Below are positions 17,497 to 58,864 of a DNA stretch of 64,000 bases, one piece after another. The stretch covers positions 234,974-298,973 of the forward strand of contig JAAEQC010000102.1 in NCBI GenBank assembly GCA_024231905.1, given 5' to 3'. The notes beneath the pieces are model-generated. The model was not told the origin of the DNA and did not search any database. It saw only the letters and a program-made list of their open reading frames with translations. Both the position numbers and the translations under genes were made by a program. Position 1 is the first letter of the stretch, and each line of letters begins with the position of its first letter. Source of the DNA: a bacterium (GTDB lineage Bacteria; Krumholzibacteriota; Krumholzibacteriia; LZORAL124-64-63).

Positions 17497-17519
17497 TTCT
17501 GTCCGATCATTCTGTCCGA
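17497..17519 (+). promoter_or_regulatory. Direct repeat TTCTGTCCGA x2 (13-nt spacing; a third TCTGTCCG copy at 17472) upstream of selA
   Basis: Seen directly in the 276-bp divergent intergenic region between the amidase and selA. Function is unknown. Confidence 0.2.
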
Positions 17520-17541
17520 CCACTGGGGGCCAACCGGTTTC

Positions 17542-18966: not shown

Positions 18967-18990
18967 CGAAGGAAACGGGAGCGACCGCAC

Positions 18991-20619: not shown

Positions 20620-20690
20620 ACGACCTGGCGCCCGGCGCCTGGACGGACCTGACACGACAGCATCGAATCACGCAGCGGAAGGTTCCTGGT

Positions 20691-25576: not shown

Positions 25577-26933
25577 GCGCCCCGCAGCCCGACCGGGCCC
25601 GCGGCGGGGTTCCACGCGACCCCGTAATCGCCGCGGCCGCCGCCGCGCTGCCGCCGACCGGGTGCAGGCCCTCCTGTCCAGTTCCCAGGGTCGGTCCGAC
25701 GACTCCCGCGACCACCGACGTCCCGAACAGCGCTGGGCCGGTTTCCGCTCCCTCGACGTGCAACGGGACCGCGAACTCTTCGCCGGCCTGGTGGCCCTGG
25801 ACTTCGACTACCTCCTGGGACTGCGCTTCGCCGCCGGTCCGCGCACCCTCATGGACCTGCTGCCCCAGTCGGTGGTGGGCCGGGCCCAGAACGGCCACGG
25901 CTGGTTCAGCGACGAGTACGGCACGGCCCTCCGCTTTCCCGACGCCACCTTCGAGCGCGTGCTGTCGGTCCTGGAGAAATCCGATCCCAATCTGCGCCCC
26001 GCCGCGGTCCGCAAGCGCCGCACGTCCATGCTCCACAACTTCGGCGCCTGGCTGTTCGAGCGTCTGGAGGCGCCGGAACTGGACCTGGTCTTTGCCGACG
26101 GTCCCCTGCTGGGCGTGGACTTCCTGGCCGACCGGACCTGGGACACGCGGGCCTTCCTGAAGGGCATGGTGCTGGCTGGCCACATGGACGACTGGTCCTT
26201 CCGCGCCACCTCCATGCTCCAGTACAAGCGAACCTTCGGCGGCTTCCCCTACCAGATCGGCGGGGGGGAGATCATGGTGGTGGACCCGGATCGCCTGGCG
26301 CTTCTCGGCCTGGGGGACACGGGGCAGTCGGTCTTCACGGACGACCACCTGCGGCAACTGCGCGACTTGGGCGCCATCGTCGATGACCCCGCCGGCGAAC
26401 ACCGCTTCCCGGACCGGGACCAGGCCTTCTTCCGTCGCCGCCTGGGCGACGGCGTGTGCGACGACATGGCCATGGTCCTGGTGGGGGCGCGCCACGGTCT
26501 GGACGCCATGATGGGCGCCTTCGTCATGGACGCGGCCGACACCTACGACAAGTACCTGCTGGAGATGACCTGGGGCGGCTACGACGGCTGGCTGGCCGGC
26601 GGTATCCAGTCGCGGATCCTCGAGCGGGAGGGCAGCCCCCTGGTGGGCGACGAGGAGATTCTCGATCTCATCCACTTCGCGGCCAAGCGCAACGACCCGC
26701 CCGTTCCCTTCAGTTCGTCCCACCGGCGGCTCATCCAGTACGAAAAGAACGCGACCACGCCCACGTTCCTGAACCACTGGCGTTTCCTGCAGGGGGACCC
26801 CCTGGACGACATCAAGCTCGGTTTCAACCGCGTGCCCGCCCGGGATTTCTACACAGCGGCGCGGGACCGGCTCGCGGCGGTGGGTATCAACGTACCCGTC
26901 CCGACCTACCTGGCGCTCCGCCGCGGGCGTTGA
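25548..26933 (+). CDS. Hypothetical protein with an Arg/Lys-rich N-terminus (start uncertain)
   Basis: 461-codon ORF with coding-like codon usage and no motifs I recognise. ATG 25548 overlaps the ftsY 3' end by 29 nt; in-frame GTGs at 25656 and 25746 are alternative starts. The 3' end is convergent with the histidine kinase gene. Confidence 0.45.
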   Translation: MVPKRKRGTRRPAARPGPRRGSTRPRNRRGRRRAAADRVQALLSSSQGRSDDSRDHRRPEQRWAGFRSLDVQRDRELFAGLVALDFDYLLGLRFAAGPRTLMDLLPQSVVGRAQNGHGWFSDEYGTALRFPDATFERVLSVLEKSDPNLRPAAVRKRRTSMLHNFGAWLFERLEAPELDLVFADGPLLGVDFLADRTWDTRAFLKGMVLAGHMDDWSFRATSMLQYKRTFGGFPYQIGGGEIMVVDPDRLALLGLGDTGQSVFTDDHLRQLRDLGAIVDDPAGEHRFPDRDQAFFRRRLGDGVCDDMAMVLVGARHGLDAMMGAFVMDAADTYDKYLLEMTWGGYDGWLAGGIQSRILEREGSPLVGDEEILDLIHFAAKRNDPPVPFSSSHRRLIQYEKNATTPTFLNHWRFLQGDPLDDIKLGFNRVPARDFYTAARDRLAAVGINVPVPTYLALRRGR

Positions 26934-29900: not shown

Positions 29901-30773
29901 AATGCCGTCGGCGTCGCCGAGGTAGATGCCGCCCACGTGATCGGTGGCCACGGTCACCTCGTGGGACAGCTGTTTGACGCGGATCATCTCGTCGCGCTCC
30001 AGCACCTGGCAACCGGTCCGGTCGAGGCGACTCAGCCAGTGCTCGCCGGCCACGAGCACGGCGCCGTCGGTCCCGTCGGGCACCATGCCGTAGGCCGGTC
30101 CCGGCGGCATTCCCGGGACGGCCGCTACCGTCGGCAGAGGGGTTCCGGTCCTGATGCGCAGGAGGCCGGCCGAGGTGGCCACCAGGAAGCCGTCCGCCAG
30201 CGGGTGGGCAGAGTAGATGATGAAGCGTTGCCCGGCCGTAGCGACCAATTGCCAGCGTTCTTCGTCGAAGAGGTACAGGTGGTTGGCCGGAGTCCAGGCC
30301 AGGACCGCGGGAGCACCCTCGGAACCGCCCACGGCGAAACCGCGGGCCGTCCAATCCGCGCCGGATTGCCGGCACGGCGGGAGCAGGCGCCAGGCGCCGT
30401 CCACGCGGACCGAAACGCTGAGCGGGGTCTTGCCGTGCAGAATCCACAGACGCCCGTCCGCGCCCACCTCCACGTCGGCCACTCCCGGCAGCATGGTCGC
30501 GGGTACGGCCTCGGGCAGCCAACGGAATCCGTCATACCGGACCAGTCCATTGCGGGTGGCCATCCAGATGGCGCCGTCGCCGTCCTGGGCGATCCCGCTG
30601 ACGGAGCTGCTGGGCAACCCGTCGGTTTCGTCGTAGGTATGGAAGTGGTAGGATTGCCCGCGGACCGCCCCGGCGACCAGGGTGGCCAAGAGCAGAGTTC
30701 CCAGGAAGGCTGACCTCACGCGACGCGCCCCCGGATTCCTGGCACCCGATGCAGTTGTTTGAGCCGGGTCCAT
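26940..30773 (-). CDS. Hybrid sensor histidine kinase/response regulator with a periplasmic two-component-regulator-propeller (Reg_prop/Y_Y_Y) sensor
   Basis: Signal peptide, roughly 700 aa of beta-propeller repeats (GLPSSSV..I.QD.DG.IW..T..GL..), TM helix, PAS-like region, HisKA (GGIAHDFNNLLMII), HATPase_c (GLGLAVAHSVIHRHDG), and a C-terminal REC domain (ILVLDDE...LLDLIVPGGMGG). Start placed at MDPAQ (30771-30773). Confidence 0.8.
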   Translation of the reverse strand: MDPAQTTASGARNPGARRVRSAFLGTLLLATLVAGAVRGQSYHFHTYDETDGLPSSSVSGIAQDGDGAIWMATRNGLVRYDGFRWLPEAVPATMLPGVADVEVGADGRLWILHGKTPLSVSVRVDGAWRLLPPCRQSGADWTARGFAVGGSEGAPAVLAWTPANHLYLFDEERWQLVATAGQRFIIYSAHPLADGFLVATSAGLLRIRTGTPLPTVAAVPGMPPGPAYGMVPDGTDGAVLVAGEHWLSRLDRTGCQVLERDEMIRVKQLSHEVTVATDHVGGIYLGDADGIRYRHPRRGWEILDTRDFAAPGAYDILVDREGLVWIAGLRGVTKIVSRRFTNFDADSGFPDDEVCAVQPLPDGGVLLGHPHGLTRFVGDEVQQVIDTDVGTGRCRTMDIAPDPEGGYWVAAERVGIARYQNNGRLTWHGNPSTPPLPIFALHADDAGKLWVGTVRGLFRVDRDAIVAGTATFELVVEKISVRRIEPAVGGGIWVTTPRLGVLRIRGDEQEWYGGPSSSRLGQAYAVLERDDRVWVGTAGGLARIEGDSLVAETAPRINDMIFGMLADRAGRVWFGTDRGVRCWQDGKLRAWRTTDGLAGNETNRDALAEDASGRIWIGTDRGVSVFDPLHDAQPTVDLPVRFTSVEVDGREVPPAGLLELPANTHEVVFRFTAYAFRDEQHLRFRTRFEPLQSAWTPARIIPDHSLRYTNLPPGLHRLHLQAVDVEGNVSEVLVSPDLRLRPPVWRTPWFVAGVVLAVLALLALLVFAVANRRFAERLGREVADRTAELRASELRYRTESARLTAVLDGITDGVLVVDGNGCILQANPGASRVLGTGRTRLEGRSLPDILPEFVPAEHDSPQPHELVIDRSADGNGARRCLEVRTATYEAPGMTTGARFLVFDDVTDRNELAEERRRAQRLESLGLLAGGIAHDFNNLLMIIMGNASLAADDRDGPDAEHYLVAINEASVRARNLTDQLLTFARGGAPRKELSDLGALVRSVTNLVLSGTNVSADLHLPADLPHTEIDVGQIEQVLSNILINARQAMPRGGLVTVRVTHRQTPVADDLAIEIGDEGPGVPVEDRERVFEPYYSTKDARTGLGLAVAHSVIHRHDGRLTVDEAPGGGARFTVLLPASERQAVPVAAAPRPPRRRSGRILVLDDEAGVREIIERVLVDRGYVCECVADGRTAVESFTGARDRGEPFDAVLLDLIVPGGMGGADTLAHLRTIDPDVRAVVISGYSDGPHLSDPGAHGFAAAVRKPFTGAQLLATLDHVLS

Positions 30774-30846
30774 TATGCGTGACCGCGGGCCGTGCGGCAA
30801 GACGGTTTCGCGGACCGGCAAGCCGGAATCGGAAGGATGCAAGATC

Positions 30847-31188
30847 ATGTCCAGGATGACGATCCCCGAGTTCCTGAAAGCGAATCCCGAGATCGACCTG
30901 CCCCTGCCGGGCGTGACCGGCTGGCTGCTCCAGGGTGAACGGCAGCAAGCGGTGGTCGTGGAATTCAACGAGACGGTGGAGGTGGCCGAGCACGATCACG
31001 CCGACCAATGGGAGATTGCGTTGTCCGGCCAGGTGGAATTGCATCGGGCGGGCGGCACCGAGGTCTACGAGGCGGGCGAGAACTTCCACATCCCGGCTGG
31101 ACAGCCCCACGGCGCCACGGTCCACGCCGGCTACAAGGCGCTCATCTTCTTTGACGAACCGGATCGATATCAGCCCAAGAAGGGTTGA
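30847..31188 (+). CDS. Cupin domain protein
   Basis: Small beta-barrel cupin motif (EHDHADQWEIALSGQVEL...GENFHIPAGQPHG). GGAAGGA RBS before ATG 30847. Confidence 0.6.
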   Translation: MSRMTIPEFLKANPEIDLPLPGVTGWLLQGERQQAVVVEFNETVEVAEHDHADQWEIALSGQVELHRAGGTEVYEAGENFHIPAGQPHGATVHAGYKALIFFDEPDRYQPKKG

Positions 31189-32420: not shown

Positions 32421-33644
32421 ATGCCGCGGTGTCCGCATGCCCGTTCGGGTGCGGCGGACCGTTCTTCTCCCTATGACATGCCCTGCCGGGATTCCATGGC
32501 CGACCCGTTCGCCAGCGACACCCGCGACGAAGCCCCCATGGCCGAGGCCCTTGCTCTGGCCCGGGCCACCGCGCGCCGTACGTGGCCCAACCCGCCGGTG
32601 GGCGCGGTGGTCGTGCGCGACGGGGAAGTAGTCGGCCGGGGCGCCCACGCCGGAGCCGGTTCGCCCCATGCCGAACCCTTGGCCCTGGCCGACGCCGGCG
32701 CGGCCGCTCGCGGCGCCACCCTCTACGTCACCCTCGAGCCCTGCAACCACCAGGGGCGCACGCCGCCCTGTGCCGCGGCCGTCTATGAAGCGGGCATAGC
32801 CCGCGTGGTCGTGGCCATGCGGGATCCGAATCCCCAGGTGACCGGCGGCGGTTGCCGTTGGCTGCGGGACCGAGGCCTGGCCGTGGACGTGGGCGTGGGA
32901 GCCGCCGAAGCACTCGAACTGGTGTGGCCTTTCGCCGCCGGCGGAGGATTCCCGCGGCCCTGGATCGAACTCAAGACGGCCACGACCCTGGACGGGCGCT
33001 TCGCCCCGCCGGACACGACCCGGGACGCGGCGGCGCCCTTCTTCCTCACCGGCCCCGACGCACGCCGCGACGTGCACCGGCGCCGGCGCCGGGTGGATGT
33101 GGTGCTGGTGGGCGAGGGCACCGTCCGCGCCGACCGGCCCCGGCTGGATGGCCGTGGCGCCGCCGGCCAGAACGACGTGCCGCAAGCAGAACCGCTGGCC
33201 GCCTACTGCGATACGGACCTCAGCTGGACCGGCGGTTTCGCCCGGGAGACATACCTGGTCCTGGCCGGGGAACAAGCCGCCGCGGATGCCGCCCGGGTGG
33301 CGGCCATCACCGCCGACGGCGGCAAAGTCGTGGCCTGCCGCACCTCCGACGGGCGCCTGGACCTGCCGGACGTGCTACGGAAATTCGCGGCGCGGGACCT
33401 GGTGACGGTCATGGTCGAGGGCGGGCCGCGCCTGGCCGCGTCCTTCCTGGGGGCCGGGCTGGTGGACCGCTGGCTGCGCTACGAGGCGCCGCGGGTCCTG
33501 GGTGCGGGTATCGGCTGGCCGGCGGATCTGGCGCCGGGTGCGGAGGACTTCCACGTCACCCGCATCGAACGCCACGGCGATGACCTTCTGACGATCCTGG
33601 ACCGCCGGGACTTCCGGTCCCTGCTGACGGAGGTGACGGCCTGA
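32421..33644 (+). CDS. ribD: Bifunctional diaminohydroxyphosphoribosylaminopyrimidine deaminase / 5-amino-6-(5-phosphoribosylamino)uracil reductase
   Basis: CMP/dCMP deaminase zinc motifs (HAEPLAL...LEPCNHQGRTPPC) plus a RibD_C reductase domain. ATG 32421 sits 9 nt after GGGAGAAG of the riboswitch 3' end. ATG 32496 (MADPF...) is an alternative start that would remove a 25-aa extension. Confidence 0.8.
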   Translation: MPRCPHARSGAADRSSPYDMPCRDSMADPFASDTRDEAPMAEALALARATARRTWPNPPVGAVVVRDGEVVGRGAHAGAGSPHAEPLALADAGAAARGATLYVTLEPCNHQGRTPPCAAAVYEAGIARVVVAMRDPNPQVTGGGCRWLRDRGLAVDVGVGAAEALELVWPFAAGGGFPRPWIELKTATTLDGRFAPPDTTRDAAAPFFLTGPDARRDVHRRRRRVDVVLVGEGTVRADRPRLDGRGAAGQNDVPQAEPLAAYCDTDLSWTGGFARETYLVLAGEQAAADAARVAAITADGGKVVACRTSDGRLDLPDVLRKFAARDLVTVMVEGGPRLAASFLGAGLVDRWLRYEAPRVLGAGIGWPADLAPGAEDFHVTRIERHGDDLLTILDRRDFRSLLTEVTA

Positions 33645-34342
33645 TGTTTACCGGCATGATCAAGGAGATCGGACGCCTCAGGGGCCTGGTCCCAGCCGGC
33701 GGTGTGGTGCGCGTGGATATCGACGGTCCGCAGACCGCCCGGGCCGCGTCCCTCGGGGACAGCATCGCCGTGGACGGCATCTGCCTCACGGTGACCGCGG
33801 TCCGGGGACGGTCCTTCTCGGCGGAAGCCGCCACCGAAACCCGCCGCCTGACCACCTTGCGCGATTGGCGCCCGGGCCGCCGCCTGCACCTGGAGCCCGC
33901 CCTGCGCGCGGGTGATCCCCTGGACGGCCACCTGGTGCAGGGTCATGTGGACGGCGTGGGCCGCGTGGTCAAGGTGGCCCGCGCGGGCCGCGACCTGCTG
34001 GTGACCGTGGGCCTGGACCGTAAAATGGCCCGCTACCTCACGCCCAAGGGCTCGGTGGCCGTGGACGGCGTGAGCCTCACGGTGGACCAGGGACCCCACA
34101 CCGACCGCTTCACCGTCAACTTCATTCCCCACACCCTGGCCTGGACCCACTTCGACGGCATCCGTTCCGGACGCCGCGTGAACCTGGAGATGGACGTGCT
34201 GGTGAAAGCCGCCCGGGCCGGCGGTTTCGCCGACCTGCCTGCGGTGGACGCCGCGCCGGCGCCGGACGCCGGGACACCCCTCACCCTGGAGCGTCTGCTG
34301 GGGGCGGGCTTCCGCCGCCGCGGCACGAAAGGATCGACATGA
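33644..34342 (+). CDS. ribE: Riboflavin synthase (alpha subunit)
   Basis: MFTGMIKEIG...GDSIAVDGICLTV... and the duplicated lumazine-binding half GSVAVDGVSLTV. ATG overlaps the ribD stop. Confidence 0.9.
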   Translation: MFTGMIKEIGRLRGLVPAGGVVRVDIDGPQTARAASLGDSIAVDGICLTVTAVRGRSFSAEAATETRRLTTLRDWRPGRRLHLEPALRAGDPLDGHLVQGHVDGVGRVVKVARAGRDLLVTVGLDRKMARYLTPKGSVAVDGVSLTVDQGPHTDRFTVNFIPHTLAWTHFDGIRSGRRVNLEMDVLVKAARAGGFADLPAVDAAPAPDAGTPLTLERLLGAGFRRRGTKGST

Positions 34343-35553
34343 GCGAGCAACCCCGCATCGACACCATCGACGAGGCCCTGGACGCTCTGCGCGCCGGGGA
34401 GATCGTCGTCGTCGTGGACGACGAGGACCGGGAAAACGAGGGCGACTTCATCGTCGCCGCCGAGAAGGTCACGCCCCAGATCGTGAACTTCATCGCCAAG
34501 CACGGCCGCGGCCTCATCTGCCTCTCGGCCACGGGCGAGCGTCTGCAGGAACTGGACATCGAGCCCATGGTGGCCCGCAACACCGCCAGTCTGGGCACGG
34601 CCTTCACCGTGAGCATCGACGCCGCCACCGGCGTCACCACGGGCATCTCGGCCGCCGACCGGTCCCGCACGGTCGAGGTCTTCATCGATCCGAAGACCCG
34701 GCCCCGCGACCTCTCCCGGCCCGGTCACATCTTCCCCCTGGAAGCCATGCCCGGCGGCGTGCTCAAGCGGGCCGGCCACACGGAAGCCGTGGTGGACATG
34801 TGCGAGGCCGCCGGCCTGTACCCGGCAGGCCTGCTCTGCGAGATCATGGACGAGGACGGGGAAATGGCGCGGTTGCCCCGCCTCGGGGAAATCGCTCGGG
34901 AGCACGGACTCAAGCTGGTGACCATCGCCGACCTCATCAAGTGGCGCCGCGGCCACGAGCGCCTGGTGGACCGGGAGGCCGAAGTGCCCCTGCCCACGTC
35001 CTTCGGCGAGTTCCGCATGGTGGCCTACTCCACCAAGGTGGACGCGGCCACCCACGTGGCCCTGATCAAGGGCGACATCAGCCCCGACGAGCCCACCCTG
35101 GTGCGCGTCCACAGCGAGTGCATGACCGGCGACCTCTTCCACAGCATGCGCTGCGACTGCGGCCAGCAGATGGAGGCCGCCCTGTCCATAATCGAGGCCG
35201 AGGGCAAGGGTGTCTTCCTGTACATGCGCCAGGAGGGACGCGGCATCGGCCTGGTGAACAAGATGAAGGCCTACGTGCTCCAGGATGAGGGCGCCGACAC
35301 GGTGGAGGCCAACGAGAAGCTGGGCTTCCCGCCGGACCTCAGGGAGTACGGCATCGGCGCGCAGATCCTCAGGGATTTGGGCGTCAAGCGCATGCGCCTG
35401 ATGACGAACAACCCCCGCAAGATCGTGGGGTTGGAGAGCTACAAGCTGGAGATCGTCGACCGGGTGGCGGTCGAGGTCGAACCGAACGTGAAGAACGCCA
35501 GATACCTGCAGACCAAGAAGGCCCGCATGGGGCACCTGCTCGACCACCTCTAG
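34339..35553 (+). CDS. ribBA: Bifunctional 3,4-dihydroxy-2-butanone-4-phosphate synthase / GTP cyclohydrolase II
   Basis: DHBP synthase motifs (DDEDRENEGDF, RGHTEA) and GTP cyclohydrolase II zinc Cys motif (CMTGDLFHSMRCDCG). ATGA overlap with ribE. Confidence 0.9.
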   Translation: MSEQPRIDTIDEALDALRAGEIVVVVDDEDRENEGDFIVAAEKVTPQIVNFIAKHGRGLICLSATGERLQELDIEPMVARNTASLGTAFTVSIDAATGVTTGISAADRSRTVEVFIDPKTRPRDLSRPGHIFPLEAMPGGVLKRAGHTEAVVDMCEAAGLYPAGLLCEIMDEDGEMARLPRLGEIAREHGLKLVTIADLIKWRRGHERLVDREAEVPLPTSFGEFRMVAYSTKVDAATHVALIKGDISPDEPTLVRVHSECMTGDLFHSMRCDCGQQMEAALSIIEAEGKGVFLYMRQEGRGIGLVNKMKAYVLQDEGADTVEANEKLGFPPDLREYGIGAQILRDLGVKRMRLMTNNPRKIVGLESYKLEIVDRVAVEVEPNVKNARYLQTKKARMGHLLDHL

Positions 35554-35565
35554 GAGGAACGTACG

Positions 35566-36039
35566 ATGGGTAAGAAATTCGAGGGCAAGTTCGACGCGCG
35601 GGGCAAGCGGATCGCCGTCGTCGGCAGCCGCTTCAACGACTTCTTCACCAGCGAGCTCATGGACGGGGCCCTGGACTGCCTGGCCCGCCACGGCGTGGAG
35701 GATGACCAGATCGACACGGCCTGGGTCCCCGGCGGTTTCGAGATCCCCATCGCCGCCAAGCGCTTCGTGGCCACCGGCCGTTACGCCGCCGTCATCTGTG
35801 TGGGCTGCATCATCCAGGGCGACACGCCCCACTTCCACTACGTGTCCAGCGAGGTCACCAAGGGCATCGCCCAGGTTTCCCTGGACTCGGACATTCCCGT
35901 GGTGTACGGCATCGTCACCGCTGAGACCCTGGACCAGGCCATCGAACGGTCCGGCACCAAGGCCGGCAACAAGGGCTTCGACGCGGCGCTCACTGCGCTG
36001 GAGATGATCGACCTCTGCGCCGAGATCGACGCGGGCTGA
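35566..36039 (+). CDS. ribH: 6,7-dimethyl-8-ribityllumazine synthase
   Basis: GKRIAVVGSRFNDF...WVPGGFEIP...GCIIQGDTPHFHYV is a canonical lumazine synthase. Confidence 0.9.
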   Translation: MGKKFEGKFDARGKRIAVVGSRFNDFFTSELMDGALDCLARHGVEDDQIDTAWVPGGFEIPIAAKRFVATGRYAAVICVGCIIQGDTPHFHYVSSEVTKGIAQVSLDSDIPVVYGIVTAETLDQAIERSGTKAGNKGFDAALTALEMIDLCAEIDAG

Positions 36040-49270: not shown

Positions 49271-51382
49271 GTGAAGCTGGCCGTGGTCATCGTCCACTAC
49301 AACACGAGCGACGACCTGGCCCGCTGTCTGGAATCCCTGAACGCCTACGGGCCGCCGGACGACTTCCGGATCGTGGTGGTGGACAACGCCTCCCGCGACG
49401 AGGGCCTGGCCGAGGTGCACCGCCGCTTCCCCGACTGTGAGTGGATCTTCAACGCGGACAACCAGGGCTACTCCCGCGGCTGCAACCGGGGCCTCGCCGC
49501 AGTGGAGGCCGAGTACTACCTGCTGCTCAACCCGGACGTGGTGGTCAAGCCCGGGGCCCTGGCCCGCCTGCTGGAATTCGCCGACGCCCACCCGCGGGCG
49601 GGCATCATCGGTCCCCAGTTGTTGAACGAGGACGGCACCATCCAGCATTCGTGCCGGCGCTTCTACACCTTCTGGACCCTGGTCCTGCGCCGCACCTTCC
49701 TGGGCAGGCTCTTCCCGGACAGCCGGCCGGTCCGGCGCCATCTCATGCAGGACTTCGACCACCGCTCGGCCCGTCCGGTGGACTGGCTCCTGGGCGGCTG
49801 CCTGCTTGTGCGCCGCAGCGCCGTCGATCGTACCGGCCCCATGGACGAGCGTTTCTTCCTCTACTTCGAGGACGTGGACTGGTGCTACCGCATGTGGCGC
49901 GCGGGCTGCGAGGTTCTCTACACCCCCGACGCGCGCTTCGTCCACCGACACAGGCGTTCCAGCGCCCAGGGCGCCACGAGCCGTTCCTTCTGGTTGCATC
50001 TGGGCTCCCTCATCTCCTTCTACGAGAAGTGGGGCGCGCTGGTGTGGCTGTTCAAGAAGTGGCGGGATCCCCTGCTGCTGTTCGTCATGTGGCTGCTGGA
50101 CATGACCGGCCTGGCGGCAGCCTTCGGACTGGCCTACGGGCTGCGAAATCTGGGGCACGACCTCTTCCCCGAGCAACTCTACCCCTTCGCCGAGTACCGG
50201 CCCCTGCTCCTGTTCGGGCTACTGCTGGCGACCCTCACCTTCGTCCTGGCGGGACGCTACCGCGGCGAGCATCTGCGCCGGCGGCGATCCGTGGTTGAAC
50301 ACCTGCAACAGACGGGCATCGTGGCGGTGCTCATGCTGGCCAGCACGTACCTGGGACACCTGGAGGTGGTCAGCCGGGCGGTGCTCCTGATGTTCGTGCC
50401 GCTGCTGGTGGTTTTCACGGCCCTGGGGGACGGTCTGGTGCGGCGCGTGCTGCGGCGGCTGGAACGCGGACACCTCTCCCTGGAACGCACGCTGCTGGTG
50501 GGACCGGCAGCGGTCTGGCGCACCTGGCTCGACCGGGCCGGGGACCTGGCGGCCCAGGGGGTCGACGTGGCCGGCTTCGTGGACGATCCGGGCGCCCTGG
50601 AATCGTTGCCGCCCCTGGCGGGTGGCACGGTGCCCTGGCTGGGCCGCCCGGCCGAGGCCGCGGACGTGGCCGAGCGGTACCGCATATCCCAGGTAGTGTT
50701 CCGGGATCTGCCGCCGCCGGGCGATCCCCTGTGGACGGCCGTGGGTGCCCTGCGCCGCATGCGAGTCCGCCTGCGCTGGCAGGGGGACGGCGTGTGGCTC
50801 CTGGCGGCTGCCACGCGCATGGAAGTCTTCGGAGGCGGGCTGAGCGCAGTTCAGGGCCAGGCGGGACGGCGAGCGGCCGGAGCCCTGGGGCGCCGTTTGT
50901 GCGGCGCGGTGGCGGGACTGCTGCTGGGCGTGGCGGCAGCGCTGCCCTGGGCCTGGTTGCGGCTGGTGGATGTTCGGCAAGGGCGTGCGCGGATCGACCG
51001 TGTGACCGCCTGGGACCGCTGGCGCGGGGGCACGCCCCTGGTACTCGCCTTGGCCACCGACGGCCAGGTGAAAGGTCTGGTCTGGCAGTGGCCGCTGGCC
51101 TGGTCCCTCCTGACCGGACGGGTGGCCATGTGGGGCGAACAAGCCCGGGCGGACGGGCCGCCGCCTCCGCCGCCGACCACCGGGGACCTCATGGATTTCT
51201 GGCGCGCCGAACCGGCGCCGCCGGGTTTGACGGGCGCCTGGGCGGCAGCCGGGGGAGGCGGCCGGCTGCGGGCGATCTGCGCTCGCCTGTGGCGCGATCC
51301 GGGCGGATTCGGTAACGTCGCGGAAACAGTACGAGCTAGGGAAGTCGTCGAGAAGGACCCTCCGGGCACCGAGGTGGAATGA
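49271..51382 (+). CDS. Fusion protein: N-terminal GT2 glycosyltransferase plus C-terminal multi-TM and CoA-binding-like module resembling the non-catalytic N-terminal half of WcaJ-type sugar transferases
   Basis: GT2 motifs (VVIVHYNTSDD, VVVDNASRDEG, FYFEDVDWCYR). Then 4-5 TM helices and LLVGPAAVWRTWLDRAGDLAAQGVDVAGFVDD...RISQVVF. No Bac_transf catalytic domain. GTG 49271; TTG 49247 is an alternative start. Confidence 0.65.
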   Translation: MKLAVVIVHYNTSDDLARCLESLNAYGPPDDFRIVVVDNASRDEGLAEVHRRFPDCEWIFNADNQGYSRGCNRGLAAVEAEYYLLLNPDVVVKPGALARLLEFADAHPRAGIIGPQLLNEDGTIQHSCRRFYTFWTLVLRRTFLGRLFPDSRPVRRHLMQDFDHRSARPVDWLLGGCLLVRRSAVDRTGPMDERFFLYFEDVDWCYRMWRAGCEVLYTPDARFVHRHRRSSAQGATSRSFWLHLGSLISFYEKWGALVWLFKKWRDPLLLFVMWLLDMTGLAAAFGLAYGLRNLGHDLFPEQLYPFAEYRPLLLFGLLLATLTFVLAGRYRGEHLRRRRSVVEHLQQTGIVAVLMLASTYLGHLEVVSRAVLLMFVPLLVVFTALGDGLVRRVLRRLERGHLSLERTLLVGPAAVWRTWLDRAGDLAAQGVDVAGFVDDPGALESLPPLAGGTVPWLGRPAEAADVAERYRISQVVFRDLPPPGDPLWTAVGALRRMRVRLRWQGDGVWLLAAATRMEVFGGGLSAVQGQAGRRAAGALGRRLCGAVAGLLLGVAAALPWAWLRLVDVRQGRARIDRVTAWDRWRGGTPLVLALATDGQVKGLVWQWPLAWSLLTGRVAMWGEQARADGPPPPPPTTGDLMDFWRAEPAPPGLTGAWAAAGGGGRLRAICARLWRDPGGFGNVAETVRAREVVEKDPPGTEVE

Positions 51383-53787
51383 GCATGCGGCACACAGGAA
51401 GCGGAAGACTCATGACGGCCTGCGCCCTGGCGTTGCTGGCGGTGGCGGCCGCCACGGCGGCAGCGGCGCCCGTATTCGAGCCCCTGACCCGGGCCCGCGA
51501 AGTAAGCACCCTGCTCGAACTGGACGGAAAGGTCTTCGGGGGCACGGGCGACGGCGGCGTGTTCGTATGGGACGCCGACGATCCCGGGCAGTTCGAACGC
51601 TGGACCGCCGGCACCCAACTGGGCAGCGCCCGGGTAGTGGATCTGGCCTGGACCGGACGCTACCTGTGGGTCGCCACCGACGACGGCGGCCTGACCCGGG
51701 TGGAGGACCCGGCCTCGGACGCACCGTCTTTCCGGCAGATCGGCTCGACCATGTCCACCTTCGCCACCACCGCCGTGGCCGGTCTATTGCGGGGCGACCA
51801 GGAACGGGTCTGGTACGGTCTGGGTGACGGCGGTCTGGGGGAGATCACCGACGGCTTCGACGGTTCGGTTTATACCACCAGCGACGGTCTGGTCAGCGAC
51901 ACGATCCGGGCGCTCCACATCCACGACGGTGAACTGTGGATCGGAACGCCCGCCGGCATCTCCCGTTTCGCCGACGGGGTCTTCCACGACGCCACCGCCG
52001 GCCTGGCCGGCCTGAACACCCGCGTCTTCGTCACCGACACCGCCGGCGATCTCTTCGCCGCCGGCAGCGGCGGTGTCCATCGCTGGGACTCCTCCGGGGA
52101 GGCCTGGGTATCCCTGGGCGGTATCGGCCGTACAGTGGTCGGCCTGGCGGTGGTGGCCGACGATCTCTACGCGCTGGGCGCCTACGCCGGCGGAACGGCG
52201 ACCCTGCACCGGTGGAACGGCACCGGATTCGACGACCTGGCTCTGCCCGAGCCCCGGACCCTGGCCACCGGCGGCGGCACGGCGGTCTGGCTGGGCGGCC
52301 GGATCGACGAACCCGGCATGCAGGTGAACCGTTCGGGACTGGCCTTCTACGCACGTCTGGACGCGGGCGGCGCGACCACGGTCTGGCAGCCGGCCCTGAC
52401 CCTGCCCGCCAACTGCGCGGGGGTGACTTTCGGCGCCGACGGCCGCCCGTGGCTCGGCTCCCGCTGGGGCGAGGCCTTCTCCGGTCGCCGGGATGACGGT
52501 ACCTGGGAAAACATCTACGAGATAGCCACGGTGGCCAACGACTCCTCCGGTCTCATCAACCAGATCGCACCCATTCTGGCCATGGCCACCGGCGCCGATG
52601 GCGTGGTCTGGGTGCCCCAGACCGGCTCCGGCGTGCTACGCCACGATCCGGCCACGGGCCGAACCGACCAGATCCGCCCCTTCAACAGCGGCCTGTCAGG
52701 GAATTCGCTGATCGGCGCCGTGGGGCATCCGGACGGCCCGGTTCTTTTCCTGCACGACTGGCTGGACACGGACGACAAGGTGGACGTGCTGGTGGACCCG
52801 GTCCACTGGCGCAATCCGGCGAACTGGCTCAGCCTGCCCCTGGGATCGGGCGGCCTGGGCGACGGTCCCAACGTATGGGACGCCCACGTGGCGCGGCGCG
52901 ACCAGATCTGGTTCGCTGTGGAGGGCACGGGTCTGGTGCGCTGGGACGTCAACGGCCTGAGCGCCGGACCCGACGATCCGCTGACCTGGCTCGATCAGTC
53001 CGACGACCACTGGACCGCACCCGTGAACGACTTCCCGAATACCTTCCTCGACCCGACCCAGGCGCGAGGCATCGACGACGGCCCAGGCGGTTCCCTGTGG
53101 GTGGGCGGCAACGGCGTGGTGCGCTTCCGCTACGACGGCGGCCTGATCACCACCCTGGACGACCTGGGCACGGCCGCCGGCGACGAGGGCGGCCTGAGCA
53201 ACAGCCGCGTGTACGACGTGGCCACCGACCGCCACGGGTACCTGTGGGTGGCGAACGCCTCGGGTCTGGACCGGGTCCGGCTCGGAGCGGGCGACCCTGT
53301 GGTGGACTCGTGGTTCGACGCCCTGACCTATGCCACGGACGGCGGCATCAACGGCCGCTACCTGTCCACCGCCATCGCCGACATGCCTGGCTCGAACTAC
53401 GACTTCGCGCGCCTGGCCCTGGATTCCGACCGCGGGCGCCTCCTGCACAGCGGCGACCGGGGTGTGTCCCTGGTCGACGTGGGCGGGCCGGTGGGTGCGG
53501 CGAGCGGCTCCGCATCGGCGCAACTCTATCCGAATCCCTGGCGCCCGGAACTGGGCGACGGTCTGCTCAGGATCGGCGGTCTGGGCGTGGAACCGGGGGA
53601 GACGGTCGAGGTGGGCATCTACACCGTCGAAGGCCAGCTGGTCTACCAGGATCCGACAGTGGCGCCGGACACGGGCTTCTGGCGAGGCGTCAACCGGGTG
53701 GGCAACCCGGTGGCGACGGGCCTGTACGTGGTGAAGGTGTCCTGGCGCGGAGAACACCTGATGCGGACCCTGGCGGTGGTCAGGTGA
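51379..53787 (+). CDS. Secreted beta-propeller (Reg_prop-like repeat) protein with a C-terminal T9SS-type / FlgD-Ig-like sorting domain
   Basis: Signal peptide (LALLAVAAATAAAAP). Repeated GG..R.D..G.LW.G. propeller-blade motifs. C-terminal roughly 90 aa LYPNPWRPELGDG...GLYVVKVSWRGEHLMRTLAVVR matches the Por/T9SS C-terminal-domain pattern. ATGA overlap upstream. Confidence 0.65.
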   Translation: MSMRHTGSGRLMTACALALLAVAAATAAAAPVFEPLTRAREVSTLLELDGKVFGGTGDGGVFVWDADDPGQFERWTAGTQLGSARVVDLAWTGRYLWVATDDGGLTRVEDPASDAPSFRQIGSTMSTFATTAVAGLLRGDQERVWYGLGDGGLGEITDGFDGSVYTTSDGLVSDTIRALHIHDGELWIGTPAGISRFADGVFHDATAGLAGLNTRVFVTDTAGDLFAAGSGGVHRWDSSGEAWVSLGGIGRTVVGLAVVADDLYALGAYAGGTATLHRWNGTGFDDLALPEPRTLATGGGTAVWLGGRIDEPGMQVNRSGLAFYARLDAGGATTVWQPALTLPANCAGVTFGADGRPWLGSRWGEAFSGRRDDGTWENIYEIATVANDSSGLINQIAPILAMATGADGVVWVPQTGSGVLRHDPATGRTDQIRPFNSGLSGNSLIGAVGHPDGPVLFLHDWLDTDDKVDVLVDPVHWRNPANWLSLPLGSGGLGDGPNVWDAHVARRDQIWFAVEGTGLVRWDVNGLSAGPDDPLTWLDQSDDHWTAPVNDFPNTFLDPTQARGIDDGPGGSLWVGGNGVVRFRYDGGLITTLDDLGTAAGDEGGLSNSRVYDVATDRHGYLWVANASGLDRVRLGAGDPVVDSWFDALTYATDGGINGRYLSTAIADMPGSNYDFARLALDSDRGRLLHSGDRGVSLVDVGGPVGAASGSASAQLYPNPWRPELGDGLLRIGGLGVEPGETVEVGIYTVEGQLVYQDPTVAPDTGFWRGVNRVGNPVATGLYVVKVSWRGEHLMRTLAVVR

Positions 53788-55226
53788 TGCCCCCGTCCCG
53801 CCTGCTCGTGGTCGGGGCGGGAGTGGCCGGCCAGACCCTGGTGCGCGAGATCCTGCGGGACCGCTTGCCCGCCGAACCGGTGGCTTTCCTGGACGACGAC
53901 GAAAGCCTGGCCGGACAGACCGTCTGCGGGTTGCCGGTGCTGGGCACCTCCGAGGACCTGGAGCGCGTGGCCAGCGAAGTGGACGCCCAGGAGGTCCTGC
54001 TGGCGATTCCCTCGTCGGGCGGACGCCTCGTTCGGCGCCTGGTCATCCTCTGCAAGCGTGCCGGACTGCCCTTCCGCATCGTGCCCGGCCTACGCGACAT
54101 CATTCTCGGCGACGTGAGCTTCGCCCAGGTGAGCCACGTGGAGCCGGAGCATCTGCTTGGCCGGGAGTCTGTGGACTTCAAGGACGAGGAGGCCAGCCGG
54201 GTGGTGGCTGGAAGGCGGGTCCTGGTGACCGGCGCCGGCGGTTCCATCGGCTCCGAACTGTGTCGGCACCTGCTGGACCTCGAACCGGCGGAGCTGATCC
54301 TGCTGGGCCGGGGGGAGAACAGCCTCTTCGACATCGGCACCGAGTTGGAGTCGCAGCGCGGCGAAACGCGCTTGCAGACGGTCATCGCCGACGTGCGGGA
54401 CCGGGCGCGGCTGAGGGTTCTCGCCGGCCGCCTGCAACCGGATCTCATCCTGCACGCGGCCGCCCACAAGCACGTTCCCTTCATGGAGGACAACCCGGAG
54501 GAGGCGGTGGCCGTCAATGTGGGGGGCACGGCCAACCTCATCGAGTTCGCCAGGACCGTGGGGGCAGAGCGCTTCGTGCTGATCAGCACCGACAAGGCGG
54601 TCATGCCCTCGAGCATCATGGGCGCCACCAAGAAGCTCGCCGAACAACTGGTGCGGCAGGCGGCGGCCGATGGCGATGGCACGCGCTTCATGACCGTGCG
54701 CTTCGGCAACGTCCTGGGCAGCCGCGGTTCGGTGGTCCCCTTCTTCATGAAGCGGATCGCCGCGGGTCAGCCCCTGCCCATCACCGACCCCCAGATGACC
54801 CGCTACTTCATGACCATCAAGGAGGCGGCGCTGCTGGTCATCGAGGCCATGGTGCTGGGGGAACGGGGTGCCACCTACATCCTGGAGATGGGCAACGCGG
54901 TCTCGATTCTGGAGCTCGCCCGGAACCTGCTCGTGCTGTCGGGCTACGATCCGGCGGGCGGCGACGACGGCCCCGGCATCGAGATCACCGGTCTCCGGCC
55001 CGGAGAACGCCTGCACGAAGTGCTCCACGAACCCGACGAGCAACTCCTGCCCAGCGAGAATCCCCTGATCCGGCGCGCGGTGGCCGGCGACACGGATCCG
55101 GCCCGGGTGGCCGCGGCCGTGGACGACCTGCTGGCCCTGGCCGTGGCCGGGGATACGGGCGGACTACGCCGCCTACTGGCCGATCTCACCGGGCGCGCCG
55201 TCCTCGTGGCGCCGCCACTCGAGTAG
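53787..55226 (+). CDS. Polysaccharide biosynthesis protein CapD / UDP-GlcNAc 4,6-dehydratase (PglF/WbpM-like, soluble form)
   Basis: Two Rossmann-like regions (LLVVGAGVAGQ, VLVTGAGGSIGSEL) and a catalytic region (FVLISTDKAV...MGATKKLAE). Start at ATG 53787 or GTG 53784, overlapping the upstream stop. Confidence 0.8.
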   Translation: MPPSRLLVVGAGVAGQTLVREILRDRLPAEPVAFLDDDESLAGQTVCGLPVLGTSEDLERVASEVDAQEVLLAIPSSGGRLVRRLVILCKRAGLPFRIVPGLRDIILGDVSFAQVSHVEPEHLLGRESVDFKDEEASRVVAGRRVLVTGAGGSIGSELCRHLLDLEPAELILLGRGENSLFDIGTELESQRGETRLQTVIADVRDRARLRVLAGRLQPDLILHAAAHKHVPFMEDNPEEAVAVNVGGTANLIEFARTVGAERFVLISTDKAVMPSSIMGATKKLAEQLVRQAAADGDGTRFMTVRFGNVLGSRGSVVPFFMKRIAAGQPLPITDPQMTRYFMTIKEAALLVIEAMVLGERGATYILEMGNAVSILELARNLLVLSGYDPAGGDDGPGIEITGLRPGERLHEVLHEPDEQLLPSENPLIRRAVAGDTDPARVAAAVDDLLALAVAGDTGGLRRLLADLTGRAVLVAPPLE

Positions 55227-55236
55227 GGGCGCGGCG

Positions 55237-56301
55237 GTGGAGGTCGGCATCCAGGCGACAACGCCCGCGGATTGGCCCGCCCTGGTGGCGGCCGATCCGG
55301 CGGCCGACTACTTCCATACCGCTGCCTGGAGTTCCATCGTCGCCCGTCACGTGCCCGGCGCCCGCGCCCTGTGGATCACCGTGCGCGACGCCGGCGAACT
55401 CGTGGGCGGCCTGGCTGCCGTTGCCCTGGGCGGTACGGTGCGACGCTGCCACTCGGGAGCCTTCGGTTGTGCCGGCGGACCCCTGGTGGCCGACGGCGAC
55501 GCCCGCCGCGGCCCGGTCATCGCCGGCCATCTCCTGGACGAACTGGTCGGTCGGCGGGGCGGTCTCCTGGCATCGGTCGGCGTCTCCCTCAATCCGGACC
55601 ACGAAGAACGCTGGGGCGGACGCCTCGCTGCCGACGCCCGTTTCCGGCGGGTCGACACTCCCGCGGCCGTGGTCTCCCTGGACGGCGGACCTGACGCCGT
55701 CGCCGCCCGCATGCGCAAGAGCAAGCGCAACGAACGCAACCGCGGCCTGCGGCGCGGTGCCGAATTCCTGGTGACCCGGGACCCGGATCACCTGGCGGCC
55801 TACCATCGCATCCACGTGCAGGCAGCCGGCGCCTGGGGCCAACCGGCGGTCCCTTTGGCCATGCTGCAGGACCTGCTCGACCAGGGGGCGGGCCCCGAGG
55901 GGGGCGAAGCCTACTTCGTAGCCGTGCGCTGCGAGGGACGGATCGTGGGCGGGCACCTGAACTTCCACCTGGGCGGGTCGGTCACCGCCTGGCATGGCGT
56001 CACCGATCCGGTCCTGGCCCGCACCCACTTCCCGTCCACCGTGGCCGTGTGGGGGGACGCGGTGGAGGCCTGCCGCCGCGGTGCGACCAGCCTGGATCTG
56101 GGGGGCAGCGGCGGCATCCCCTCCCTGGAGTCCTTCAAGCGGGGCTTCGGCGCCGAACGCCGGGAGCGTGGCTGGTACGTGGCGGAAACGGCGCCGCTGC
56201 GGCTGCTGCGGAGCCTGCGCGGCCTGGTCCGGCGCAAGGAAGGCAACGGGCGACGCTGGCACGACGGCGCCACCGGCGCGTCCGGTGGAGGTACGCCGTG
56301 A
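55237..56301 (+). CDS. FemAB-like / GNAT-fold (Acetyltransf_6) acyl- or aminoacyl-transferase
   Basis: Duplicated GNAT-like halves (YFHTAAWSSIV...; VTAWHGVTDP...LDLGGSG...SLESFKRGFGA), as in FemAB-family proteins. GTG start. Confidence 0.55.
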   Translation: MEVGIQATTPADWPALVAADPAADYFHTAAWSSIVARHVPGARALWITVRDAGELVGGLAAVALGGTVRRCHSGAFGCAGGPLVADGDARRGPVIAGHLLDELVGRRGGLLASVGVSLNPDHEERWGGRLAADARFRRVDTPAAVVSLDGGPDAVAARMRKSKRNERNRGLRRGAEFLVTRDPDHLAAYHRIHVQAAGAWGQPAVPLAMLQDLLDQGAGPEGGEAYFVAVRCEGRIVGGHLNFHLGGSVTAWHGVTDPVLARTHFPSTVAVWGDAVEACRRGATSLDLGGSGGIPSLESFKRGFGAERRERGWYVAETAPLRLLRSLRGLVRRKEGNGRRWHDGATGASGGGTP

Positions 56302-57611
56302 GACTCCTGGCCGCGGGCGCCCGCATCCTGTCCGGCCGCGTGGCCCAGATCCTGGCCAACGCCGCAGTGGTTTTCTGGGTGGCCAAGACCCTGGGACCCA
56401 CGGGGCAGGGCCACTACAGTCTCACCGTGGCCGTGGCCCAGCTCGCGGCTGCCCTCCTGGCCGGCGGCATGGGCCTGGCGGCGGTGCCACCCCTGCGCCG
56501 GGACCGCATCCCGGCGGCCCGCATGGTCTCGGTCCAGGCCGGCTGGGCCGGCGCTACGGGGCTGGTGCTGCTGGGCGTGGCCGCCCTGGCCGGCGGTGGG
56601 GCGGTGGGCGCCTTCTTCGCCCGGCATCTGGGCTGGTCGCCGGGGCTGGCCTTCGCCGTGGCCATCGGCGCCACCGGATTGCTCACCTTCGAGATCTTCT
56701 CCTACGACCTGCTGGCCCGTGGCAGGCTGGTCATCGGTTCGGCCATCAACGGCTGGCGCGCCGCCGGCCACCTGGTGATCGTCGGCACCGCGGGCCTGGC
56801 CGGGATGCTCGGCTTCGCCCAGGCGGTGGGGGCCTTCGCCCTGGCCCAGTGTGCGGGCGCGGCGGTCCTGGTGGGGGTCGTCCTGCGGGAGATCCGCCGG
56901 CCTTGGCCCCGGCCCGGCGCCAAGCCCGGTCCGCCCGCGCCCCTGCGCGACAAGGAGCTCCCGGCGGACCTGGCGTCCTACTCCCGCCTGCGGTTGGTCC
57001 TGTTCAACCTTCAGCGGGGTTGGCTGGGACAGCTCTCGGCCGTGGCCTACTTTCTGCTGCTGCGCCTGGACCAGGGACTGCTGGCCCGCTACCACGGTGC
57101 AGCGGAGGTGGGGGTGTACTCGGTGGCGGTGCATCTGGGCGAGATGCTGTGGTTGTTGCCCGGGGCCATGACGCCTCTGCTGGTCCATACCTCGGCGGCC
57201 GACGCCGGCGATCCGGACCGTAACCGCACGGCCGTGCGGGCCGTGGGCATCGGCATGGTCGTGACCCTGGCCGCGGCGGTACCCCTGGCCCTGGTGGCGG
57301 GTCCCCTGCTGTCCCTGTTGGCCGGCGGCGCCTATGCCGGCGCGGTTCCGGCCCTGCGGGCCCTGCTGCCCGGCATCGTGGCCTTCGCCCCGGGGGCGGT
57401 CCTGGCCGGCGACTTCATCGGTCGCGGTAAACCCCATTGGAACACCCAGGCCAGCCTGTTGACCGTGGTGGTGAACCTGGCAGCGGGCCTGTGGCTCATC
57501 CCCGAGCACGGGGCCGTGGGCGCGGCCTGGTCCAGCACGGTGGCCTATGCCTGCGGGTCGGCTCTGATGCTGATTCGCTTCCGGCAAGCGATCCGCCGCG
57601 ACCAGGCCTGA
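56298..57611 (+). CDS. MOP-superfamily polysaccharide flippase (Wzx-like)
   Basis: About 12-14 TM helices with Wzx-like topology. GTG overlaps the upstream stop (GTGA). Confidence 0.65.
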   Translation: MRLLAAGARILSGRVAQILANAAVVFWVAKTLGPTGQGHYSLTVAVAQLAAALLAGGMGLAAVPPLRRDRIPAARMVSVQAGWAGATGLVLLGVAALAGGGAVGAFFARHLGWSPGLAFAVAIGATGLLTFEIFSYDLLARGRLVIGSAINGWRAAGHLVIVGTAGLAGMLGFAQAVGAFALAQCAGAAVLVGVVLREIRRPWPRPGAKPGPPAPLRDKELPADLASYSRLRLVLFNLQRGWLGQLSAVAYFLLLRLDQGLLARYHGAAEVGVYSVAVHLGEMLWLLPGAMTPLLVHTSAADAGDPDRNRTAVRAVGIGMVVTLAAAVPLALVAGPLLSLLAGGAYAGAVPALRALLPGIVAFAPGAVLAGDFIGRGKPHWNTQASLLTVVVNLAAGLWLIPEHGAVGAAWSSTVAYACGSALMLIRFRQAIRRDQA

Positions 57612-58304: not shown

Positions 58305-58450
58305 CGCACCACGATGTCCGGCGGCAAGGATGCCAAGCCGGGATCGGCCGGGCGGTGAACGCTGATGGAGCGGCGACCGCCCGGCCCGGGCAAACCAACG
58401 AGCAACGACATCCGCCCACGGAAGGGCGACACTTGGGAAGGAGCCCGCAA

Positions 58451-58864
58451 ATGCCGAGAGAGACGACCCGTCAGGCCGCGAGGCAGGAGGCCGCACGCAG
58501 CACGATGGAGATTCAGGTCCAGCACCAGGAACGGACTGTGCGGGTCTCTCTCTCGGGAATCCTCGATCGCGAAGGGGTCGCCGCACTGGCCGCCCGGGTG
58601 GCTCCCGGGCTGGCCGGCCGCGGTTGTCACGTCGTGCTCGATGGAACGGGCTTGACCCACATGGACTACCGTGCTACCCGCCCGTTCATAACCTGGCACC
58701 GCCGCCTGCGCACCTACGGCCACGAACTCTTCCTGCAGGGCTGGAGTGATTACCTCAAAGCCATCCTGGTCATGGAAGACTGGGACGTGGCTCCAGGCGA
58801 TCCGCCGGCCGGCTTGCCCACCCTCCGTCACCTGGGGAGCATCGCCGCCGTACGGATGCCATGA
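58451..58864 (+). CDS. STAS-domain protein (anti-sigma-factor-antagonist-like) inserted between mraZ and rsmH
   Basis: MEIQVQHQERTVRVSLSGILDREGVAALAARV...VVLDGTGLTHMDYRATRPFITW is a SpoIIAA-like STAS fold. GGAAGGA RBS 9 nt before ATG 58451; the stop overlaps the rsmH ATG (ATGA). The ORF is open from 58355, so the start is uncertain. Confidence 0.5.
   Translation: MPRETTRQAARQEAARSTMEIQVQHQERTVRVSLSGILDREGVAALAARVAPGLAGRGCHVVLDGTGLTHMDYRATRPFITWHRRLRTYGHELFLQGWSDYLKAILVMEDWDVAPGDPPAGLPTLRHLGSIAAVRMP

Follow-up and report, generated by a model that had tools for sequence, protein, structure and literature searches.

We analysed a 64,000-nt stretch of contig JAAEQC010000102.1 (the window, to which all coordinates refer unless one of the numbered loci of relatives, such as L001, is named) and focused on the gene at 51379..53787 (+), which is number eight in a tightly packed run of twelve genes, many of them with overlapping start and stop codons. 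Homology along its entire length identifies the product, with near certainty, as a divergent full-length homolog of PorZ, a subunit of the attachment complex of the T9SS (type IX secretion system) which presents the anchor glycan, anionic lipopolysaccharide (A-LPS), to the PorU sortase (PMC8545088). The open reading frame (ORF) is intact at 802 amino acids plus stop, with a third-position GC of 0.8-0.93 throughout, and the encoded protein is identical to GY838_08725, an NCBI protein from a metagenome-assembled genome (MAG). The NCBI start for this protein is M12, and alternative start codons of the ORF are at 51385 and 51412. A longer N-terminus is favoured over M12 because the N-termini of the orthologs read MRxT.

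In the N-terminus, MSMRHTGSGRLMTACALALLAVAAATAAAA followed by PVF, a basic n-region leads into a hydrophobic core and then a c-region rich in Ala, from which we infer a Sec-type signal peptide comprising residues 1-29 (51379..51465, +). Residues 1-28 are the sole long low-confidence stretch of the AlphaFold model, with a predicted local distance difference test (pLDDT) score below 50. A lipoprotein signal was considered and rejected, the single Cys preceding the hydrophobic core instead of following it. An earlier sequence-only reading of this DNA had described an ORF with a signal peptide, and the codon bias together with the n-, h- and c-region features bear this out.

The AlphaFold model, built on 19 orthologs (pLDDT 85.4, predicted template modelling score 0.81), contains two beta-propellers followed by a C-terminal beta-sandwich. 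The first propeller (aa 30-340, 51466..52398, +) has approximately 29 strands in roughly seven blades by DSSP assignment and aligns to the propellers of both PorZ and the sensors of hybrid two-component systems (HTCS). The second (aa 341-700, 52399..53478, +), delineated by the model and Pfam, has approximately 26 strands, again in roughly seven blades, and carries a family signature, GLVRWDVNG...DDPLTW.D.SDD.W, at aa 518-545. Pfam Reg_prop (PF07494) was detected at 26.9 bits against a cutoff of 20.4, with a repeat at aa 605-626. A flexible linker rich in Gly, Ser and Ala, DVGGPVGAASGSAS (aa 701-714, 53479..53520, +; pLDDT below 50 at residues 706-712), leads into a T9SS type-A or FlgD_ig-like C-terminal domain (CTD) at the extreme C-terminus (aa 715-802, 53521..53784, +), which is modelled as a beta-sandwich of 6-7 strands and contains YPNPW, W768, G781-x-Y783 and a C-terminal LAVVR.

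The sequence-only reading had assigned these propellers to the type found in the sensor of a hybrid kinase in the same window (26940..30968, -). The two proteins do have the repeat family in common, Reg_prop scoring 84 bits in the kinase, but they are no close paralogs, the BLASTP match between them being weak (E 0.001). The kinase itself combines Reg_prop, PAS, HisKA, HATPase and receiver domains and, unlike typical HTCS sensors, has no Y_Y_Y domain reported by Pfam. The strongest sequence matches for the propellers of the PorZ-like protein are HTCS sensors (PDB 3v9f, 4a2l). These sensors bind glycans and, as in the periplasmic parts of Bacteroides BT4663, BT4673 and BT3049 (PDB 4A2L, 3OTT, 3V9F), have two seven-bladed propellers of the Reg_prop type followed by an all-beta domain, as does the PorZ-like protein. 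They differ from it in their global domain arrangement (Foldseek TM ~0.32) and in possessing Y_Y_Y, transmembrane helix, kinase and receiver domains, none of which Pfam reports for the PorZ-like protein, which ends instead in a CTD of the T9SS type.

Relationship to PorZ

PorZ (5m11) was the top match in a Foldseek comparison with the PDB, extending over the full length with an E-value of 2.3e-26 and TM-scores of 0.59/0.63, and a profile of the family matches the same protein at E 5e-18. The PorZ model NF052228 was also the top NCBIfam hit, at 42.9 bits, the match covering only model positions 641-741 in the C-terminal region. PorZ consists of a signal peptide, two seven-bladed propellers and a CTD of approximately 85 aa (PMC5121618), adding up to some 750-800 aa. 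The CTD of PorZ is retained. The P. gingivalis protein (PG1604 / PGN_0509, PDB 5M11) and the window protein are alike in length (~780-800 aa), signal peptide, paired seven-bladed propellers and an 85-90-aa type-A CTD, with about 16-21% sequence identity between them.

Relatives were sought by exhaustive profile search of 1.8 billion representatives, which returned two tiers, the first composed of orthologs at E-values below 1e-180 and the second of proteins of ~760-820 aa aligned full length in a single stretch at E 1e-50 to 1e-106. PorZ was the top NCBIfam hit in all ten of the second-tier proteins tested (40-95 bits), seven of which also passed the cutoff of the T9SS sorting domain model TIGR04183, and scores of the intermediate orthologs overall against the PorZ model range from 40 to 109 bits. 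One second-tier protein, P0241, retrieves entries from Latescibacterota and Krumholzibacteria named by NCBI as T9SS type A sorting domain-containing proteins, and its full-length matches extend to Bacteroidota-type proteins with the Pfam domain PorZ_N_b_propeller. Five of these Bacteroidota-type proteins were scanned with the PorZ model; four pass its equivalog cutoff (283-409 bits) and the fifth reaches 256.9 bits.

Alignment of the family with six Bacteroidota-type proteins (those five among them) using hhalign gave a probability of 99.9% and an E-value of 1.9e-34, with 716 co-linear columns spanning positions 7-808, which run from the signal peptide as far as the final CTD strand. A control alignment with HTCS sensors covered the propellers only (477 columns, E 7e-24), ending at position 641. 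A joint alignment of the family with the intermediate orthologs and true PorZ has 20 positions at which the residue never changes. There is thus a graded series from the first-tier family through the second tier, which occupies the same operon position, to curated PorZ, and the family falls in a PorZ-like superfamily beyond the curated Bacteroidota equivalog. Its members currently go under the names 'hypothetical', 'two-component regulator propeller domain' protein or 'T9SS type A sorting domain' protein, annotations that would be corrected if the functional assignment holds.

Taken alone the CTD of the window protein falls below the thresholds of the general models, scoring 19.8 bits against TIGR04183, just under the cutoff of 23, and 15.1-19.1 bits against FlgD_ig (PF13860, cutoff 27), with CHU_C likewise sub-threshold in Pfam. 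Across the family, all 16 CTDs match both TIGR04183 (best E 1.5e-9) and the PorZ CTD (best E 2.3e-12) at E ≤ 0.01, and the resemblance is therefore specific to T9SS domains and not that of a generic Ig fold. The profile check of the C-terminus proposed with the sequence-only reading thus gave 19.8 and 19.1 bits with TIGR04183 and PF13860 for the single protein and a T9SS-specific match for the family, and the description of a Por-secretion-like beta-sandwich of some 90 residues agrees with both the model and the family-wide matches. Flagellar models match seven of the 16 CTDs, weakly, and no FlgD N-terminal domain is present in the protein. The cutoff of TIGR04183 is passed by nine of the 13 divergent relatives with the same type of operon that were scanned, and also by the homolog from locus L041 (30.7 bits). 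The CTD stretch of the family profile matches 5m11 at 41.9 bits (independent E-value 3.6e-10). In addition to the PxP (YPNP) and G-x-Y motifs of the type A sorting domain (PF18962/TIGR04183), the family and PorZ have in common the motif YPNPxRPE..DG..I.GL ... W..G..VA[ST]G.Y.V, which goes beyond generic CTD features, and among the 20 invariant positions of the joint alignment are P718, P720, G752, W768, G781 and Y783.

The glycan operon and its conservation

Upstream of the PorZ-like gene the operon encodes, on the (+) strand, a TMEM260-like GT-C glycosyltransferase (40101-42932), an epimerase/dehydratase (42922-43968), two GT2 glycosyltransferases (43965-44915 and 44908-45840), a YfhO-like GT-C enzyme (45896-48532), a further GT2 (48525-49250) and a fusion of GT2 with CoA_binding_3 and a degenerate Bac_transf-like C-terminus (49271..51382, with a start at GTG 49271 or TTG 49247). 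Downstream on the same strand are a CapD/PglF/PseB-like nucleotide-sugar 4,6-dehydratase (53787..55226; Polysacc_synt_2, 339 bits), a FemAB-like GNAT protein (55237..56301; Acetyltransf_6, PF13480, 62 bits against a cutoff of 22) and, as the last gene of the operon, a flippase-like membrane protein of the MOP superfamily (56298..57611), which has weak MurJ and Polysacc_synt hits and whose start overlaps the previous stop as GTGA. The sequence-only reading had the PorZ-like gene coupled by ATGA overlaps to glycosyltransferases on both sides. This holds upstream, where its ATG overlaps the stop of the GT2 fusion as ATGA. The downstream neighbour is the dehydratase, and the junction there, GTGATG, is tight but of another kind, the next gene beginning at GTG 53784 (4-nt overlap) or ATG 53787 (1-nt overlap).

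With each GTDB species represented by a single genome, a scan located 59 loci of the family, the gene holding an identical place in a 12-gene glycan operon in some 55 species genomes. The GT2 fusion lies directly 5′ of the PorZ-like gene in 53 of the 54 distinct loci with upstream sequence, and the order of the upstream operon genes is kept in related loci. On the 3′ side are the FemAB-like and flippase-like genes, with CapD intervening in about half of the loci, such that the FemAB-like gene is the first or second gene after the PorZ-like gene in almost all loci from Krumholzibacteriia. The more PorZ-like proteins of the second tier occupy the same operon position at L063 (where the FemAB-like gene is also found) and L064, and the possibility that second-tier proteins are paralogs existing alongside the operon gene was rejected on the grounds of this position in their own genomes. 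An ortholog in a closed Latescibacterota genome (L067) is again in the same operon position. The placement of the gene within a glycosylation operon, as originally described from the window, therefore extends to 53 of the 54 distinct loci that include upstream sequence and to divergent orthologs.

In the window the glycan operon is directly followed by mraZ and the division and cell wall (dcw) cluster. We considered linkage to dcw as a conserved feature and rejected it, as the module of the closed Latescibacterota genome lies away from dcw; the conserved linkage is therefore to glycan synthesis. Between mraZ and rsmH a gene with a STAS_2 domain (58355..58864; 18607..19020 in L001) is present in nearly all Krumholzibacteriia loci (most of L004-L062), an unusual insertion into the normally invariant mraZ-rsmH pair which heads the dcw cluster.

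Among full-length relatives the label is Candidatus Krumholzibacteriia or Krumholzibacteriota, besides unassigned 'bacterium'-type entries and a few labels that are probably the result of loose binning. From the nearest named relatives and the shared synteny we infer that the host is an uncultured lineage of the Fibrobacteres-Chlorobi-Bacteroidetes (FCB) superphylum, and not a member of the Bacteroidota. The Bacteroidota framing of the sequence-only reading is thus not upheld, given these relatives and a window GC content of ~70%.

The operons vary in their sugar-modifying genes. A DegT aminotransferase gene follows CapD in L001, L063, L064 and L067 and, among the loci with called genes, is not found in L002 or the window. 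Together with the presence of CapD in only about half of the Krumholzibacteriia operons, this suggests that different first or linking sugars are accommodated within one conserved operon frame. The C-terminal ~180 aa of the GT2 fusion (about 50840..51382) align with the Bac_transf (phosphoglycosyl-transferase) domain of the orthologs in L063, L064 and L067, where it is intact. In the window and L001 this region gives no PF02397 score and its motifs look degenerate, and in the clade of the window the function of initiating transferase may have disappeared or been relocated. An intact Bac_transf gene for a sugar transferase (235 bits), which the start of the window truncates, is located at 3..917, followed by a UbiA-family prenyltransferase gene (554..1813), and may supply the initiating activity missing from the fusion. 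L041 (1..12406) is the sole locus with the PorZ-like gene outside a glycan operon, in the vicinity of genes for a sulfatase-family protein, an efflux-transporter-like protein and a partial FG-GAP protein.

Candidate roles of the PorZ-like protein

The sequence-only reading had offered the protein as either a glycosylation substrate or a surface component. PorZ is a binder of A-LPS, and its interaction with PorU depends on that glycan (PMC8545088). A full-length homolog of this anchor-glycan-binding subunit is more likely to handle the product of the pathway than to receive it. Of the two proposals we accordingly retain the surface, T9SS-type component and do not favour the acceptor, placing a probability of approximately 0.55 on a PorZ-like glycan-binding surface component that serves the operon product. 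PorZ is tied to a surface glycan through its binding of A-LPS, and the gene described here is linked to glycan synthesis; its product probably binds or handles the operon glycan at the surface. That it fulfils the complete shuttle role of PorZ, a suggestion made by analogy, is more tentative and in our estimation somewhat short of an even chance.

Under such a scheme the divergent PorZ-family protein encoded by the gene would cross the inner membrane by means of its predicted Sec signal peptide, and its CTD, which is of the T9SS type, would be recognised by a putative T9SS for passage across the outer membrane. Retained at the surface, its two propellers would bind the product of the 12-gene operon, a glycan or glycolipid. 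The gene content of this operon comprises sugar-nucleotide modifiers, several enzymes of the GT2 type, a fusion of GT2 with a phosphoglycosyl-transferase, a flippase-like protein, two extracytoplasmic GT-C enzymes and a VimA-like transferase of the FemAB family. By analogy with P. gingivalis PorZ, the glycan could then be presented to a PorU-type sortase, resulting in the covalent anchoring of other CTD proteins.

Potential cargo for such a system was seen in two related MAGs. In L036, from a Krumholzibacteriia MAG, a protein of 1008 aa (17781..20804) is encoded directly after the operon in place of mraZ/dcw. It has a homologous CTD (FlgD_ig 38 bits, above cutoff) and no other recognisable domain, and its best NCBIfam match is to the CTD of the PorU model. 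In L041 the FG-GAP protein passes TIGR04183 with 39.5 bits. These CTD proteins, along with the PorZ-like protein of L041 (TIGR04183, 30.7 bits), provide cargo-side support for a T9SS in the lineage. Across all loci a hidden Markov model (HMM) of the family CTD found further CTD proteins in L036 and L041 only, and in six-frame translations of the first three loci it detected none. The CTD profile, searched on a large scale, gave six hits, namely three ortholog fragments, two short Por_Secre_tail/FlgD_ig proteins and one unclassified short hit, with no PorU-like C25 protein among them.

The FemAB-like gene offers a further parallel. T9SS cargo is joined to A-LPS via a linking sugar, the Ser or Gly of which is added by VimA, a protein matching TIGR03019 (pepcterm_femAB) (PMC7468200), and TIGR03019 is the sole NCBIfam hit of the FemAB-like protein. 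The resemblance between the two proteins may be regarded as a parallel at the level of the family, as distinct from a demonstrated equivalence. The Wbp/Vim pathway known from P. gingivalis and T. forsythia (VimA, VimE, VimF, WbaP and Wbp enzymes) ties glycan synthesis to the anchoring of T9SS cargo. The operon resembles it in having a FemAB-family transferase that matches TIGR03019 below cutoff, a polyprenyl-phosphate sugar transferase and enzymes modifying amino sugars. The implied sugar chemistry differs, with a 4,6-dehydratase of the CapD/PglF type, alone or accompanied by a DegT aminotransferase, and WbpA/B/D/E lacking; a deacetylase of the VimE type was not seen, two GT-C enzymes (YfhO-like and TMEM260-like) are present and, unlike in the Wbp/Vim pathway, all the pathway genes are in one operon which includes the PorZ-like gene. 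Exopolysaccharide (EPS) loci of PEP-CTERM/exosortase systems likewise have a FemAB-like gene in an EPS-type operon tied to C-terminal protein sorting (PMC7468200). In contrast to those loci, no exosortase or PEP-CTERM proteins were seen here and the co-operonic sorting signal is a CTD of the T9SS type.

A number of observations weigh against a PorZ-like role. The 42.9 bits of the window protein are far below the PorZ equivalog cutoff of 260, the Pfam domain PF21544 (PorZ_N_b_propeller) was not detected in it among hits at E ≤ 0.1, and its propellers are closer in sequence to those of HTCS sensors than to those of PorZ. No PorU, PorV, PorQ, Sov or PorKLMN was found in the 64-kb window or the flanks examined (10 kb, relatives), based on Pfam and NCBIfam scans of approximately 40 window ORFs and of the L041 neighbours, and the family CTD HMM found no other CTD protein in six-frame translations of the window. 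A literature search returned no report of a T9SS in Krumholzibacteriota, Latescibacterota or further candidate phyla of the FCB superphylum beyond general statements of its occurrence in that superphylum. The VimA link depends on a sub-threshold TIGR03019 match (30 bits, well under the cutoff of 260), and the FemAB-like gene is absent from L064 and L067, the two Latescibacterota-type operons with enough downstream sequence. Finally, the true PorZ genes examined lie outside glycan operons, which means that the operon context described here cannot be transferred from the known PorZ system.

In one alternative the protein functions in the envelope independently of T9SS, its double propeller binding a growing polymer, either periplasmic or at the surface, as a scaffold for the assembly, export or chain length of a cell-envelope glycopolymer produced beside the division and cell-wall genes, with the Ig-like CTD acting only as an anchor or spacer. 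The failure to find T9SS core genes in the window or the flanks read, the resemblance of the propellers to glycan-sensing HTCS sensors and the recovery of only two non-family CTD proteins in the large CTD-profile search, which makes the CTD appear rather family-specific, are all compatible with it, as is the position of the Krumholzibacteriia operon next to mraZ/dcw with MurJ-like and FemAB-like genes reminiscent of the handling of cell-wall precursors. However, the module of the closed Latescibacterota genome is not beside dcw, every one of the 16 family CTDs matches T9SS-specific models, with PorZ the best, and divergent orthologs pass the TIGR04183 cutoff and are named by NCBI as T9SS sorting-domain proteins, and we regard this alternative as unlikely. 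Somewhat less likely again is that the protein is ordinary T9SS cargo, cleaved at the Gly/Ser/Ala linker and itself the acceptor, O-glycosylated or C-terminally attached to the operon glycan. A T9SS-type CTD following a flexible linker of small residues would be expected of such cargo, and the tight coupling to glycan genes includes a TMEM260-like GT-C, from a Pfam family named for a protein O-mannosyltransferase. Cargo and component roles are moreover compatible, since PorZ itself passes through the T9SS as a CTD protein (PMC5121618). Against an acceptor stands the full-length homology, which is to a component of the machinery and not to a substrate. Propeller residues and gene position are strictly conserved across two phylum-level groups, which suits a dedicated functional partner more than it does a passive acceptor. 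The O-glycosylation motif of Bacteroidota, D[ST][AILVMT], shows no enrichment (2 observed against 3.9 expected), although it may not apply in the phylum of the host. Very improbable in our view is a catalytic role in which the double propeller, as a GH74-like glycoside hydrolase or a lyase, trims or remodels the operon polysaccharide. The matches which would support it are far weaker than that to PorZ and generic for seven-bladed propellers, neither Pfam nor NCBIfam assigns a catalytic family, and the nearest characterised relatives, PorZ and BT4663, are binders and not enzymes.

A glycan-binding, PorZ-like component at this position would have consequences beyond the window. The glycan-shuttle role of PorZ rests on one organism, P. 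gingivalis, and in Bacteroidota PorZ and the anchor-glycan genes are scattered. What is new here is a divergent PorZ-like clade fixed in a glycan operon outside Bacteroidota, in dozens of species of uncultured FCB lineages. If the functional assignment is correct this would constitute independent comparative-genomic support for the connection between PorZ and glycan, extend the glycolipid anchoring of T9SS cargo beyond Bacteroidota and provide a compact candidate set of anchor-glycan genes for heterologous expression. A bolder and rather doubtful extension is that the 12-gene cluster is a self-contained anchor-glycan and PorZ operon, producing a lipid-linked glycan whose first or linking sugar would be amino-acylated by the VimA-like enzyme and which the PorZ-like protein would deliver to a PorU-type sortase, both anchoring and shuttle being an ancestral trait of a broad section of the FCB superphylum. 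Were this so, a pathway scattered in Bacteroidota would here be contained in one operon that could be transplanted and dissected.

Other features of the window

The two true PorZ genes examined (L065 9510..12346 and L066 9501..12280) sit directly after ribH, encoding 6,7-dimethyl-8-ribityllumazine (DMRL) synthase, with overlapping start and stop codons and no glycan genes nearby, in contrast to the location of the PorZ-like gene inside a glycan operon. PorZ is moreover from Bacteroidota, and the PorZ-like protein from Krumholzibacteriota/Latescibacterota-type MAGs. The window contains a riboflavin operon (ribD, ribBA, ribH) at 32421..36039, about 15 kb upstream of the PorZ-like gene, and the proximity of ribH could be a coincidence or a remnant of an old linkage.

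Two further ORFs have unusual features. The ORF at 16231..18966 encodes 911 aa, of which only aa 445-900 match SelA (selenocysteine synthase) and the N-terminal 444 aa have no family match, and it may be over-extended or a fusion. Between ftsY and the hybrid kinase gene an ORF of 461 aa (25548..26933), which has no Pfam or NCBIfam match, combines an extremely Arg-rich N-terminus with a strong coding bias.

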